From the IMG/VR virus record IMGVR_UViG_2537562231_000017: a stretch of DNA of 5,356 bases; one strand, 5' to 3'. Position numbers and translations under genes: made by a program. Shown here piece after piece: positions 1,896-5,035 of this stretch (positions are counted from its first letter, which is position 1; each line of letters opens with the position of its first letter). The DNA is from a virus (taxonomy: Duplodnaviria; Heunggongvirae; Uroviricota; Caudoviricetes). Below the pieces are notes generated by a model. That model was given only the letters and a program-made list of their open reading frames with translations, did no database searches and was not told where the DNA came from.

Positions 1896-2396
1896 ATGAA
1901 AAGAAAATCCCTGTCAGAGATCGACCTGCAAGCCGCCCAGAGACTGAAAGAAATCTGGACGGCGAAAAAAAATCAACTAGGGTTAACCCAAGAGCGTGCG
2001 GCAGAAATTCTGGGATTTTCGACACAGGGAGCTGTAAGCCATTATCTAAATGGTCAGACACCTTTAAATCTTGAGGCTGTTATCAAGTTCGCAGGGTTGC
2101 TGCAAGTTCCTCCCGAGTCAATCAGACCAGATATGGCCGAGTTGTTACAAATTGTAAGGATGTATCCCCAAGAATCTGGGGAGGACAATGTTGTCACTAT
2201 ATCTGCAGATATGGAACAATCGGAAAACGAACTTCCGTTTAATATAGACCCCATGGAGCGGGATTTGCTCCAGACGTTCAGGGCTTTCCCCAAAGAAGAT
2301 AAAGAGAAAATGCTTAAGGAAATGAAGGAGAAAAAAGAATCAATTGAAGAAATCGTTGCGCGATGGCTAGCTGCGCAAAAGGGTCGTCGCGCCTAA
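1896..2396 (+). CDS. paaR: PaaR-like HTH (XRE-family) transcriptional regulator, first gene of a three-component TA operon; occupies the prophage repressor position
   Basis: 166-aa ORF. N-terminal HTH LGLTQERAAEILGFSTQGAVSHYLNG. Followed 17 nt downstream by the antitoxin gene with an AGGAGG RBS, matching the paaR-paaA-parE three-gene architecture described in E. coli O157:H7 (established knowledge; not verified by search). Confidence 0.7.
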   Translation: MKRKSLSEIDLQAAQRLKEIWTAKKNQLGLTQERAAEILGFSTQGAVSHYLNGQTPLNLEAVIKFAGLLQVPPESIRPDMAELLQIVRMYPQESGEDNVVTISADMEQSENELPFNIDPMERDLLQTFRAFPKEDKEKMLKEMKEKKESIEEIVARWLAAQKGRRA

Positions 2397-2413: not shown

Positions 2414-2605
2414 ATGAGTACAGCCCTTTCCCCGATAATTTCTGAATTTGAAACAGTCGAACAAGAAAACAGCTATAACGAATGGTTGCGAACCAAAGTG
2501 GCAGCAAGCCTCTCAGATCCCCGTCCTGCAATTCCACATGACGAAGTAATGGCTGAAATGGAAAACCTTATTGCTCAATTAGCTGCAACGAACAGGAGTG
2601 AGTAA
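2414..2605 (+). CDS. paaA: PaaA-type antitoxin (partner of ParE toxin)
   Basis: 63-aa ORF MSTALSPIISEFETVEQENSYNEWLRTKVAASLSDPRPAIPHDEV...; the N-terminal ~45 aa closely match PaaA2 antitoxin as I recall it. AGGAGG SD 6-7 nt upstream. Stop overlaps the toxin start (TAATG). Confidence 0.8.
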   Translation: MSTALSPIISEFETVEQENSYNEWLRTKVAASLSDPRPAIPHDEVMAEMENLIAQLAATNRSE

Positions 2606-2895
2606 TGCTGCCCATTTTATGGCTACCTTCTGCACGTGATGATTTACGTCAGATCGTAGCCTATATTGCTAAGGAAAACCCTCCCGCTGCACGTAGACTA
2701 AAAATACGCATTGAAACATCAGTTTTGTCACTTACTGAACACCCTTATCTGTACCCACCGAGCGAAAGAGTTCCAAGTCTTCGTGAGATAGTGACTCATC
2801 CTAACTACATAATACTTTACCGAGTAACAGCATCTAACATCGAGATCGTAAATGTAGTTCACTCACGAAGACAGTATCCAAACAAAACCTGTTAA
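2605..2895 (+). CDS. parE: ParE-family toxin (RelE/ParE superfamily)
   Basis: 96-aa ORF MLPILWLPSARDDLRQIVAYI...EHPYLYPPSERVPSLREIVTHPNYIILYRV...VVHSRRQYP, matching conserved ParE motifs. Translationally coupled to the antitoxin (ATG at 2605 overlaps TAA at 2603-2605), upstream AGGAG. Confidence 0.85.
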   Translation: MLPILWLPSARDDLRQIVAYIAKENPPAARRLKIRIETSVLSLTEHPYLYPPSERVPSLREIVTHPNYIILYRVTASNIEIVNVVHSRRQYPNKTC

Positions 2896-2984: not shown

Positions 2985-3163
2985 TCATTCATCAACCCAC
3001 CCCGCCCCACAGAACGCCAGGCAATACTTCGAGTTACCCGGCAGTGGTCAGGGGTTAAGTAGCCAGCCCGAGGCGTAAGAACATGACGGCAGGGTTCAAC
3101 TTTAATAACTATGCAGCAGGTTTTTGTTCCGCTACCCCGGCGTTAAGGGGAAATGAGGTCAGC

Positions 3164-3319
3164 ATGGATACTATCGATCTTGGCAACAGCGAATCTCTGG
3201 TATGTGGCGTGTTCCCCAACCAGGACGGTACGTTCACCGCGATGACGTATACCAAAAGCAAAACGTTTAAAACCGAAAATGGTGCCCGTCGCTGGCTGGA
3301 AAGAAACTCAGGTGAGTGA
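3164..3319 (+). CDS. ydfA: YdfA-like small prophage protein (Qin prophage ydfA homologue, DUF1391-like)
   Basis: 51-aa product MDTIDLGNSESLVCGVFPNQDGTFTAMTYTKSKTFKTENGARRWLERNSGE from the ATG at 3164, with GAGGT 5 nt upstream. Length and sequence match my recollection of K-12 YdfA. The ORF track's 78-aa version starts at an in-frame ATG at 3083. Confidence 0.7.
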   Translation: MDTIDLGNSESLVCGVFPNQDGTFTAMTYTKSKTFKTENGARRWLERNSGE

Positions 3320-3320
3320 T

Positions 3321-3449
3321 ATGGATTTCGACACAATCATGGAAAAGGCTTACGAAGAATACTTCGAAGGTCTTGCCGAAGGCGAAGAAGCTCTCAGCTT
3401 CAACGAATTTAAACAGGCGCTTTCCAGTTCGGCAAAATCTAACGGCTGA
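3321..3449 (+). CDS. ydfB: YdfB-like small prophage protein (42 aa)
   Basis: Not in the ORF track (too short). Hand translation from ATG 3321 gives MDFDTIMEKAYEEYFEGLAEGEEALSFNEFKQALSSSAKSNG, stop TGA 3447-3449. Starts 1 nt after the ydfA stop, reproducing the K-12 ydfA/ydfB spacing as recalled. Confidence 0.65.
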   Translation: MDFDTIMEKAYEEYFEGLAEGEEALSFNEFKQALSSSAKSNG

Positions 3450-3478
3450 TAAGCGAAACAGCACCGCGAGGAATCAGT

Positions 3479-3697
3479 ATGCAGAAACGAGAACCCGTCA
3501 TCATCGCGCCAGACTATACCGATGATGAACTTTATGAGTGGATGCGCCAGAAAATTAATGCAGCGCAGGATCTGAAATGGGCCAATGAAGCCAGGACTAA
3601 GCAGGCTGAAAATCTGTCCGCTCTGGAGCAGGATATCACCAGGCTGGAAAAAGCAGCGGCATTAAGCATTGCCAGAATGGTTACATACCCACGTTAA
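3479..3697 (+). CDS. ydfC: YdfC-like prophage protein (72 aa)
   Basis: 72-aa ORF MQKREPVIIAPDYTDDELYEWMRQKINAAQDLKWANEARTKQAENLSALEQDITRLEK...; the 29-nt gap after ydfB matches the K-12 Qin arrangement as recalled. Confidence 0.75.
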   Translation: MQKREPVIIAPDYTDDELYEWMRQKINAAQDLKWANEARTKQAENLSALEQDITRLEKAAALSIARMVTYPR

Positions 3698-3719
3698 TAG
3701 CTAACCAACGAGGCTAATA

Positions 3720-4121
3720 ATGGAATTTAAAGATTTACCAATGCCATTCCAGGAAATGGCAGCGAATGTGGTTCGCTCTCAACTGGCGACTCTTGACCTG
3801 AGTACTGTAGAAAAGGAAACCATCGATACTATATCCGGTAACGTGCGTCGTGCCTTTATAGGTCTGTATGAAGAGAAGCGCCTATTCGGCGGACAGAATT
3901 CGCCTGAAAACAAGAATCAAGCAAATGATGAGAAGCTGAAACACATTATCGCCTTACTTTTGGAAGACGCAAAACGTCTACAGCAACTGGAACCAAATGC
4001 AGGCACAGAGGCCCGCATTTGGATTGCCATGAAATCACTCAAATGTGAAAGCAGTGATTATTTCAAAACAACAATTAAAACTACTCAACTTTCGGGAGAG
4101 CTACTGAAGAAATTGCCATAA
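3720..4121 (+). CDS. Hypothetical protein (133 aa), unknown function, in a low-GC segment
   Basis: ATG at 3720 with GAGG SD 6 nt upstream, 23 nt after the ydfC stop and in the operon direction. No recognisable motifs. This region is visibly more AT-rich than the flanking prophage genes (by eye, not computed). Confidence 0.5.
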   Translation: MEFKDLPMPFQEMAANVVRSQLATLDLSTVEKETIDTISGNVRRAFIGLYEEKRLFGGQNSPENKNQANDEKLKHIIALLLEDAKRLQQLEPNAGTEARIWIAMKSLKCESSDYFKTTIKTTQLSGELLKKLP

Positions 4122-4359
4122 GAGCATGGTCTTTCTCTTGTTCTGCAAGATGAGCATTAATACCTGGTATGGTTTTTTCAAATTTATCTATCTGTTGAAT
4201 AACAACTTCGCGGTATACGTTTGTTTTTGTACCACCAAGCGCAGCCGTTAATGCAGAAAGCATATTTAGTATCATATCAGTGCGATATGAAAGAATCCTG
4301 ATAGCTTCATCTTGTTTTTCAATAATAGATTGCAGGGCCTCAATTTGCTTTTTATCCAT
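4081..4359 (-). CDS. Hypothetical protein (92 aa from ATG at 4359), unknown function, predicted largely helical
   Basis: Minus-strand ORF; preferred start ATG 4359..4357 (MDKKQIEALQSIIEKQDEAIRIL...) preceded by a strong AGGAGGGTG SD at ~5-nt spacing. The ORF-track GTG start at 4398 lacks an SD. Convergent with, and overlapping by 41 bp, the 3' end of the 133-aa gene. Confidence 0.5.
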   Translation of the reverse strand: MDKKQIEALQSIIEKQDEAIRILSYRTDMILNMLSALTAALGGTKTNVYREVVIQQIDKFEKTIPGINAHLAEQEKDHALMAISSVALPKVE

Positions 4360-4691
4360 TTCACCCTCCTGAGGGTTGGTAATTAAGGAGTTCTCCACGG
4401 GTCAGGTGGAGTGCGTGCGCCGGACACGGGTGAACATCCGGCACTGACAGTTTACTGAAAGGATATGTCCCTGAAAAGTCAGGGCATAACGCGAAAGCGC
4501 ACGGCGAAATTGGTCTCTCTGTACGGTGTCGTTAAATTTAGTTCGACCGTGCGCTTCCGGTTGTGGCACTCCGCGAAATGGCGCGGCGGTAAGTATGGCG
4601 GGGTTATTCCTTCCCCCGTTGAGGACACCGGGTTGTCAGGTTGACCATACGCTTAAGTGACAACTCCGCTGCAACGCCCTCTGTTATCAAT

Positions 4692-4749
4692 TTTCTGGTG
4701 ACTTTTGGCGGTATCAGTTTTACTCCGTGACTGCTCTGCCGCCCTTTTT
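4692..4749 (+). ncRNA. dicF: DicF small regulatory RNA
   Basis: TTTCTGGTGACTTTTGGCGGTATCAGTTTTACTCCGTGACTGCTCTGCCGCCCTTTTT is near-identical to the E. coli K-12 DicF sequence as I recall it (one apparent substitution), ending in a GC-rich stem plus T-run, located upstream of dicB as in Qin. Confidence 0.85.
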
Positions 4750-4918
4750 AAAGTGAATTTTGTGATGTGGTGAATGCGGCTGAGCGCACGCGGAACAGTT
4801 AAAACCAAAAACAGTGTTATGGGTGGATTCTCTGTATCCGGCGTTAATTGTTAACCGGTTAACGTCACCTGGAGGCACCAGGCACCGCATCACAAAATTC
4901 ATTGTTGAGGACGCGATA

Positions 4919-5035
4919 ATGGAAACGTTATTACCAAACGTTAATACGTCTGAAGGTTGTTTTGAAATTGGTGTCACTATCAGTAACCCTGTATTTACTG
5001 AAGATGCCATTAACAAGAGAGTAAGCGTAAACTGA
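4919..5035 (+). pseudogene. dicB: dicB (cell-division inhibitor) truncated after codon 34 by a mobile-element insertion
   Basis: ATG at 4919 (GAGGA ~8 nt upstream) encodes METLLPNVNTSEGCFEIGVTISNPVFTEDAINKR, matching DicB residues 1-34 (62 aa in K-12, as recalled). The frame then reads VSVN-stop across new sequence starting GTAAGCG at 5021. Confidence 0.8.

Follow-up and report, generated by a model that had tools for sequence, protein, structure and literature searches.

What are two small genes that run into each other between ydfC and DicF doing in the early region of a prophage, and do they belong together? We addressed this question for the open reading frames (ORFs) ORF133 (133 aa, plus strand) and ORF92 (92 aa, minus strand) in a 5,356-nt stretch of viral DNA (IMG/VR record IMGVR_UViG_2537562231_000017), referred to below as the window. 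The window spans the immunity genes and the early genes of a lambdoid prophage of the Rac/Qin type, and an identical copy of it adjoins potC in Escherichia coli NMBU-W12E19. A first-pass annotation of this DNA had proposed the two ORFs as a single accessory module. Our best reading, drawn from comparison of sequences, is a different one: ORF92 appears to be a swappable cargo in a polymorphic antisense slot of a dicBF-type early operon.

The two genes and their reassortment

Both ORFs, their ribosome-binding sites (AGGAGGGTGAA and GAGG) and the overlap of their 3' ends are present as first described (Table 1). The two genes are real and under purifying selection, with ratios of nonsynonymous to synonymous substitution (dN/dS) of about 0.2 against Salmonella. 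For ORF92, dN/dS is 0.23 relative to a homologue in a Salmonella prophage (72% identical), which is the lowest value of the six frames and comes from the only frame without stops; for the C-terminal half of ORF133, dN/dS is 0.2. Frameshifts or a lack of conservation had been named at the outset as signs of non-coding sequence; ORF92 is intact in 50 of 56 copies on viral contigs, with 1-3 substitutions each, and its conservation extends to ~40% identity in other elements. Five of the other copies are frameshifted (see below), and the last departs from the reference past codon 67, leaving an ORF of 68 aa.

Among 5,426 complete E. coli genomes, 127 carry ORF92. Its family is tiny: a search of 5.8 billion proteins gave 22 clusters, and a profile search run exhaustively on 1.84 billion representatives gave 13 relatives, all of ~90 aa. 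A version extended to a GTG start would have 105 aa and reach position 4398. The AlphaFold2 model of ORF92 consists of three helices with a mean confidence (pLDDT) of 69.5. No membrane helix was found in the protein, its highest 19-aa Kyte-Doolittle mean being 0.93, with an isoelectric point (pI) of 5.7 and a grand average of hydropathy (GRAVY) of -0.10; ORF92 is thus predicted to be a soluble, mildly acidic helical protein.

The two large searches gave no usable function by homology. Nothing reached threshold in Pfam or NCBIfam for ORF133 or ORF92 (the best NCBIfam match, RelB-like, scored 15.9 bits against a cutoff of 50), and the defence models of PADLOC-DB 2.0 gave no match to ORF92 and only noise for ORF133 (E 0.025-0.06). 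A toxin-antitoxin-like or known anti-phage identity, of the kind on which the first-pass annotation had speculated, found no support, in keeping with its statement that neither protein has recognised motifs. Membership in PHROG families is clear and full-length, ORF133 matching phrog_1363 (E 3.4e-45 over positions 1-131) and ORF92 matching phrog_18692 (E 5.9e-63, positions 1-92 of 92), yet it gives no mechanism because both families are annotated "unknown function". RefSeq lists both genes as hypothetical proteins, so that the word "undescribed" used of them in the first-pass annotation holds in the sense of uncharacterised, not in the sense of unannotated. Structure prediction, recommended there as a check, was run on the single proteins and gave models of moderate quality with no fold match that would indicate a function: profile searches of the PDB, and Foldseek against PDB and BFVD, found no meaningful relative.

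ORF133 has a composite character. Its N- and C-terminal halves match different PHROGs, and its AlphaFold2 model (pLDDT 61.4 overall) exceeds 80 only at aa 1-50, which form a helical hairpin. Among the plus-strand proteins found at this site in other E. coli prophages, residues 1 to ~52 are common and are followed by at least three C-terminal types; the N-terminal 55 aa of ORF133 belong to a widespread early-operon protein and are found with other C-termini. In Salmonella, the C-terminal domain, which we call CTD-A, is a protein of 71 aa by itself, and a 52-aa protein of phage phi191 resembles the N-terminal domain alone, with a weak match (E 0.045, TMt 0.84). Because each part can thus be found by itself, weakly so in phi191, the simplest reading of ORF133 is a mosaic early-operon gene that joins a common N-terminal domain to a C-terminal one.

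Do ORF133 and ORF92 form a unit? Comparison with K-12 Qin and with other prophages, as the first-pass annotation had advised, bore out that the segment is extra and revealed no fixed pair, the site holding varied minus-strand genes. Other E. coli prophages carry a convergent pair of different content at the same site: homology breaks inside the plus gene and resumes at the ATG of the minus gene. The minus-strand proteins of these alleles fall into families of 57, 73, 77 and 91-92 aa that are unrelated, save for a distant relationship between the 91- and 92-aa types. One locus (L005) has the same plus gene as the window with a different, 57-aa minus gene, and two others (L004 and L007) share one plus type with two different minus genes. 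In Salmonella (L009, L155), the ORF92 homologue converges on the 71-aa CTD-A-only protein and the 41-nt overlap is retained. In locus L153 an ORF92 relative overlaps, again by 41 nt, a 214-aa helix-turn-helix (HTH) protein whose resemblance to ORF133 is confined to the final ~16 residues, the part overprinted on the conserved C-terminus of ORF92. Further distant ORF92 relatives occupy other positions of the kind taken by morons, beside an integrase gene or converging on cI, with no CTD-A partner. The complete E. coli genomes with CTD-A number 168 of 5,426; identity is ≥95% in 127 of them and ~91% in the other 41, and the single ~91%-type locus inspected is L005, with its 57-aa minus gene. Since the two genes overlap and their copies are near-identical, their co-occurrence reflects linkage and is no sign of partnership. 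The view of the two ORFs as one module or cognate pair is not supported: their alleles reassort, and each gene is found without the other.

A common leader, interchangeable cargos and an embedded stem-loop

A regularity of the site lies upstream of the minus-strand gene. All E. coli alleles have a common leader (...TTACCAACCCTCAGGAGGGTGAA), and their divergence begins exactly at the ATG. The leader is structured, with two hairpins (P1 and P2) and a stem (P3) in which an upstream motif pairs with the Shine-Dalgarno (SD) sequence (Table 1). Both P1 and the anti-SD:SD stem emerge from RNAalifold, and one pair of the latter switches from A-U to U-A in 4 of 11 sequences. The leader is retained in Salmonella, and also in a P2-like element that carries an ORF92 relative of only ~45% identity; it precedes zinc-ribbon, "VRIELRD" and other cargos too, and the distance from P1 to the ATG is 58-64 nt across unrelated cargo families. 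A hexamer TAAACT, TAAGCT, TAAAAT or TATTTT stands precisely 6 nt before P1 in nearly all of 80 unique leaders, despite differing surroundings in some. We infer a weak candidate sigma-70 promoter for the cargo unit, from which the transcript would start at the base of P1. Rfam gave no match for the leader or the 3' hairpin at E ≤ 5 over 3650-4700, and DicF (RF00039, 75.8 bits) is the sole Rfam match in the window.

Several further observations concern this leader. Conserved blocks CCGGAAGCGCAC ... GTGCGCTTTCGCGTT at 4483-4560 on the minus strand could pair mutually or with GCGCAC after P1, a hint of alternative structures. A short inverted motif, TAACCAAC / GTTGGTAA, was seen by eye at both cassette boundaries and was dropped, being too short and not recovered by a repeat search. 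The notion that the leader occurs without DicF was weakened, as the contig of L153 ends 167 nt upstream of P1 and the Salmonella Rac-like locus L009 has a DicF-like remnant. This remnant (4513-4563 in reverse-complement coordinates of L009) is 54 nt long, shares 81% identity with the 3' part of DicF, and may be a diverged small RNA (sRNA); L009 yields no Rfam DicF match at the gathering threshold.

The extra DNA relative to K-12 that had been proposed was recovered with sharp limits. K-12 Qin aligns to the window at 3126-3717 and 4374-5020, two blocks that directly abut, and lacks exactly the 656 bp between them. The distance from ydfC to DicF is 995 bp in the window, as first stated, and 340 bp in K-12 (1649041 to 1649382), where the first-pass annotation gave ~420 bp. 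The AT-richness first noted is also evident, the GC content being 0.37-0.41 across 3900-4400 and 0.47-0.56 in the flanks. K-12 retains the leader DNA from 4374 on; the ribosome-binding site and the ORF are absent. The K-12 stretch between ydfC and dicF (L002; NC_000913.3, ~1649062-1649382) corresponds to an empty slot, with P1 at ~1,649,130 on the minus strand.

A search of viral contigs for the P1 motif gave at least 119 loci. Among the matches listed, ~64 loci have no cargo, ~40 of them K-12-like and ~21 with a 124-aa plus gene that runs into the leader. The 53 filled loci among the matches listed carry cargo from at least 11 families (57-94 aa) that start at a fixed distance from the leader, and ORF92 accounts for 9 of these 53. 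No alternative cargo family, among them types of 57, 61, 64, 69, 73, 77, 91 and 94 aa, has a known function. The sole hint comes from the zinc-ribbon family (CPKC...CxxCG; L167, L169, L171; 62-67 aa), which has a sub-threshold match to the Pfam family Lar (restriction alleviation), at 20.3 bits against a cutoff of 28.6.

A second constrained element lies on the distal side of the cargo, within the coding sequence of CTD-A. We gathered loci with the CTD-A core by peptide, which leaves the synonymous sites unbiased. The 24 unique sequences obtained for the core represent eight genera: Escherichia, Salmonella, Hafnia, Raoultella, Lelliottia, Edwardsiella, Cronobacter and Aeromonas. Nearly all representative core loci inspected oppose an antisense ORF, of several unrelated families and in at least six genera, whose stop lies 38-179 nt from the core hairpin; in Cronobacter phage phiES15 and Aeromonas phage pAEv1818, the core sits in proteins of 91-95 aa that converge on an unrelated antisense gene of ~94 aa, one that lacks annotation in phiES15. 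In phiES15 (NC_018454; L156, 2735-3022, minus strand), an unannotated 95-aa ORF, a homologue of pAEv1818 gp19, occupies a 600-nt gap annotated as empty.

The core codons contain a stem-loop (3993-4022) whose four-fold degenerate sites are near-fixed in the stem: CCA in 21 of 24 sequences, GCA in 23, GGC in 21, GCC in 24 and CGC in 23. Outside the stem, the threonine codon of the loop takes all four bases, and flanking four-fold sites mostly have entropies of 1.1-1.8 bits. The stem pairs in 94.7% of cells on the minus strand versus 83.8% on the plus strand, and five stem positions vary on one side through G.U pairs on the minus strand. Folding energies are -23.0 kcal/mol (z -4.5) for the minus strand and -19.6 kcal/mol (z -3.6) for the plus strand. 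The case for the stem-loop thus lies in synonymous-site constraint and G.U asymmetry, not in covariation, and we regard it as a candidate 3'-end element of the antisense transcript: a terminator, a stabiliser or a processing site. Allele types without the core carry hairpins of their own past the cargo stop. L004 and L007 have stem-loops there, one of them AAGGGGGUUC..GAAUCCCUUU with a U-rich tail and located within the plus gene, and L005 has a canonical terminator-like hairpin (-19.5 kcal/mol) 14 nt past its 57-aa gene.

Table 1. Positions of genes and sequence elements in the window, in order of the plus strand
Feature	Position	Strand	Description
Replication and ydaT-like genes		-	Start of the gene order
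cro-like gene			Next in the gene order
DicA-like repressor gene	1896-2396		
relB/relE pair	2414-2605 and 2605-2895	+	
ydfA			
ydfB			
ydfC	3479-3697		
Segment without counterpart in K-12 Qin	3718-4373		656 bp; the empty slot keeps the leader from 4374 on; L002 positions 4062/4063 are adjacent
ORF133	3720-4121	+	133 aa from ATG, GAGG 7 nt upstream
N-terminal domain of ORF133	3720-3884	+	aa 1-55, followed by a linker
CTD-A	3921-4121	+	C-terminal domain of ORF133, aa ~68-133
CTD-A core	3936-4028	+	32 aa, LKHIIALLLEDAKRLQQLEPNAGTEARIWIA; nucleotide identity 79-85% to phages phiES15 and pAEv1818
Candidate 3' stem-loop	3993-4022	-	12-bp stem (3993-4004 / 4011-4022), 6-nt loop; in core codons of ORF133, 58 nt past the ORF92 stop
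3' overlap of ORF133 and ORF92	4081-4121		41 nt
ORF92	4081-4359	-	92 aa from ATG at 4359, AGGAGGGTGAA directly before ATG; predicted three-helix protein
Cargo leader	4360-4442	-	Hairpins P1 and P2, stem P3
P3	4390-4386 with 4370-4365	-	CUCC(A/U) paired with the SD sequence
P2	4411-4393	-	Present in 25 of 26 unique variants, with at least 5 different stem sequences
P1	4442-4419	-	Invariant; U.G pair valid on the minus strand only
Candidate sigma-70 promoter	4449-4477	-	-35 TTTTCA (4477-4472), 17-nt spacer, -10 TAAACT (4454-4449), predicted start ~4442
DicF	4693-4744	+	
dicB			After DicF
DUF1482 gene, exonuclease, xis, int			In this order after dicB

Two neighbouring features of the window deserve mention. 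The relB / relE-parE genes (RefSeq names), between the DicA-like repressor gene and ydfA, form a type II toxin-antitoxin pair within the same early operon. Between DicF and dicB, a sigma-70-like match (TTAACA, 16 nt, GAGAAT at 4854-4827) lies on the minus strand, and a transcript from it would run antisense through DicF.

Proposed expression unit and competing explanations

How might such a slot be expressed? We propose that it is a polymorphic antisense cargo site and that ORF92 would be transcribed independently in the lysogen, gated by its leader and silenced by convergent early transcription, an account in which our confidence is about even. ORF92 would be transcribed on its own from the weak sigma-70 promoter; its mRNA would begin at the 5' hairpin P1, and since the upstream CUCC can sequester the SD sequence, translation would probably be gated. 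The transcript would end, or gain stability, at the stem-loop within the ORF133 coding sequence. That ORF92 runs antisense to the operon yielding DicF and dicB had been pointed out in the first-pass annotation, and gene order and strands agree; being antisense to the repressed early operon, ORF92 would be produced in the lysogen, and derepression of that operon (ORF133, DicF, dicB) would shut it down through convergent transcription and complementary RNA. According to Salmonella prophage transcriptomics (PMC7067206), genes that lie antisense to the lytic operons of prophages are as a rule accessory loci with transcription of their own. Expression in the lysogen with shut-off on induction would follow the same logic, at the same map position, as for sieB in Rac and lambda; a regulatory collision of the two transcription units, which has this precedent, is plausible. 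Judged by the position of the slot and its allelic diversity, ORF92 would most likely provide a lysogen-expressed accessory function, possibly exclusion of, or interference with, other phages. ORF92 would then act by binding a partner, not by catalysis.

A wider claim is possible, though we advance it only tentatively. Rac/Qin-type prophages, which are found in most E. coli, may carry an undescribed cassette site in which a promoter and an SD-sequestering leader lead directly, from the start codon on, into one or another of a set of antisense genes for small proteins, with a stem-loop distally. ORF92 and at least 10 alternatives would then be new lysogen-expressed effectors, and the cassette would be represented in K-12, in its empty state, by the untranslated region before DicF.

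A number of observations weigh against the proposed expression unit. The candidate promoter agrees with the consensus at 8 of 12 positions by eye and was not called by the promoter scan. P2 shows no strand bias and so gives no strand assignment; in 18 of 26 variants its plus-strand form is the more stable one. The same leader DNA lies in the plus-strand DicF precursor (PMC5069750), so that its conservation could serve the plus-strand RNA, and the leader persists in empty slots. At the distal end, the 3993-4022 stem shows no double compensatory changes among the 24 core variants, with a flat shuffle control, and no U-tract follows it, which is why we speak of a candidate 3'-end element and not of a proven terminator; with no call from the terminator scan either, a canonical intrinsic terminator was rejected. 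The K-12 Term-seq tables, which are uninformative here, contain no minus-strand 3' end at the predicted place. In 5 of 56 copies of ORF92 (L147-L151), an additional T in a T-run (~4288-4292, codon ~24) truncates the product to 27 aa; this may be real decay or a homopolymer sequencing error. None of eight alternative cargos matched PADLOC-DB 2.0.

Could the leader and the hairpins serve the plus strand instead, in processing or stability of the DicF/dicB precursor, with small ORFs inserted at a permissive site that has no dedicated antisense promoter? RNase E and RNase III do release DicF from a long untranslated stretch of the operon that includes this region (PMC5069750), and both the greater plus-strand stability of P2 and the retention of the leader where the slot is empty would fit. 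We nevertheless judge this explanation unlikely. At least 11 unrelated cargos begin at a fixed distance behind the same SD sequence, only the minus strand gives a meaning to the anti-SD:SD pairing and its A-U/U-A swap, the invariant U.G pair of P1 would become a C.A mismatch on the plus strand, and the position of the -10-like hexamer is fixed while its surroundings differ. Salmonella loci, moreover, keep the leader with DicF below the Rfam threshold, though the 54-nt DicF-like remnant is present there. Somewhat less unlikely is that the antisense unit acts mainly as RNA, its transcription against the early operon braking leaky expression of toxic DicF and DicB, with the protein secondary. Both products are toxic on overexpression (10.1101/2023.04.14.536235), the convergent geometry is conserved, and in about half of the loci among the matches listed, K-12 included, the leader and putative promoter are kept without cargo. 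The ORF92 protein is itself under selection, however, as its dN/dS and strong SD sequence indicate, and the cargo families are maintained as intact ORFs. An action at the level of RNA is compatible with the expression unit proposed here and does not exclude it.

The remaining explanations concern the proteins. ORF133, through CTD-A, and ORF92 could be an effector and its antidote, toxin-antitoxin-like or an exclusion/self-immunity pair, with one protein produced by the lysogen and its partner upon induction. CTD-A and ORF92 do remain neighbours in both E. coli and Salmonella, at ~74% DNA identity and with an unchanged overlap of 41 nt, and the number of complete E. coli genomes with ORF92 equals that with the ≥95%-identical CTD-A variant (127 each). 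We consider a cognate module quite improbable all the same: the physical overlap makes co-occurrence in near-identical copies simple linkage; L005 pairs CTD-A (DNA ~91% identical across this segment, a band with 41 genomes) with its different 57-aa gene; and in phiES15, pAEv1818, Hafnia, Raoultella, Edwardsiella and others, the core is met with antisense genes of unrelated kinds. At ~40% identity, relatives of ORF92 lack CTD-A, or have the 214-aa HTH partner that matches in the overprinted tail only, and no toxin-antitoxin or defence model matched. Finally, a narrow distribution, the lack of any known domain and the five frameshifted copies could be expected if one or both ORFs were chance or decaying, non-functional reading frames. 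That idea is already largely refuted and has very little left in its favour, given purifying selection in the correct frame only, strong ribosome-binding sites, conservation down to ~40% identity and the 50 intact copies.

Relation to known systems and implications

The closest positional counterpart of ORF92 is sieB (superinfection exclusion B) of lambda, P22 and Rac, a gene expressed from the prophage that excludes superinfecting phage by abortive infection. In Rac, sieB is antisense and lies between the DUF1391 gene ydaF, a homologue of ydfA, and the sRNA kilS with kilR, just as ORF92 lies before DicF and dicB; in lambda, sieB converges on N, the preceding early gene, and is antisense to the early-left operon. 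The proteins are different: SieB is a basic membrane protein of 162-192 aa (peak hydropathy 2.19 for Rac SieB), in contrast to the acidic, soluble 92-aa product of ORF92 (0.93). A BLASTP comparison of Rac and lambda SieB with all minus-strand allele proteins gave nothing better than E 3.5, and the sieB promoter region was rejected as a homologue of the cargo leader, since the DNA upstream of sieB is unrelated. The resemblance of the slot to sieB is positional only.

The slot also resembles lambdoid morons and prophage accessory-gene hotspots such as the P2/P4 defence hotspots (Rousset et al. 2022, PMC9122126), in its presence or absence between conserved flanks, its lower GC, the number of unrelated cargos that alternate at a single site and its orientation against lytic genes (PMC7067206). 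It differs from both in that its cargos are single very small proteins (57-94 aa) without recognisable defence domains, which have a common structured, SD-sequestering leader joined exactly at the start codon and a distal boundary inside the coding sequence of a neighbour. We found no description of a start-codon-joined structured leader, or of a distal boundary within a neighbouring coding sequence, in the literature. Toxin-antitoxin systems share with ORF133 and ORF92 the small genes and the prophage location, and some type I pairs the 3'-overlapping convergence; an SD-sequestering leader is also found in hok-like mRNAs. Type I toxins, however, are short membrane peptides (<~60 aa), whereas ORF92 is hydrophilic, has 92 aa and faces a transcript that encodes a protein. 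Type II systems are co-directional, whereas ORF133 and ORF92 are convergent, the partner reassorts freely and no toxin-antitoxin model reached threshold. The papers found mention neither the protein accessions nor any antisense unit at this site, and those on dicBF describe neither antisense transcription nor ORF133 or ORF92.

What would this mean for the biology of these prophages? ORF133 and ORF92 in themselves are ordinary hypothetical prophage genes, and the interest lies in the architecture of the slot; if the antisense unit is not expressed, what is left is two further genes of that sort. If the proposal is true, it would account for the unexplained 340-nt untranslated stretch before DicF in K-12, and it would provide a case of a regulatory RNA structure within a protein-coding sequence that serves a gene on the opposite strand. 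Silencing of the toxic DicF/DicB functions could likewise be made tighter or looser by the unit. Expressed as proposed, the slot would offer at least 11 small uncharacterised prophage proteins from a single site to screen for phage exclusion and for effects on the host.

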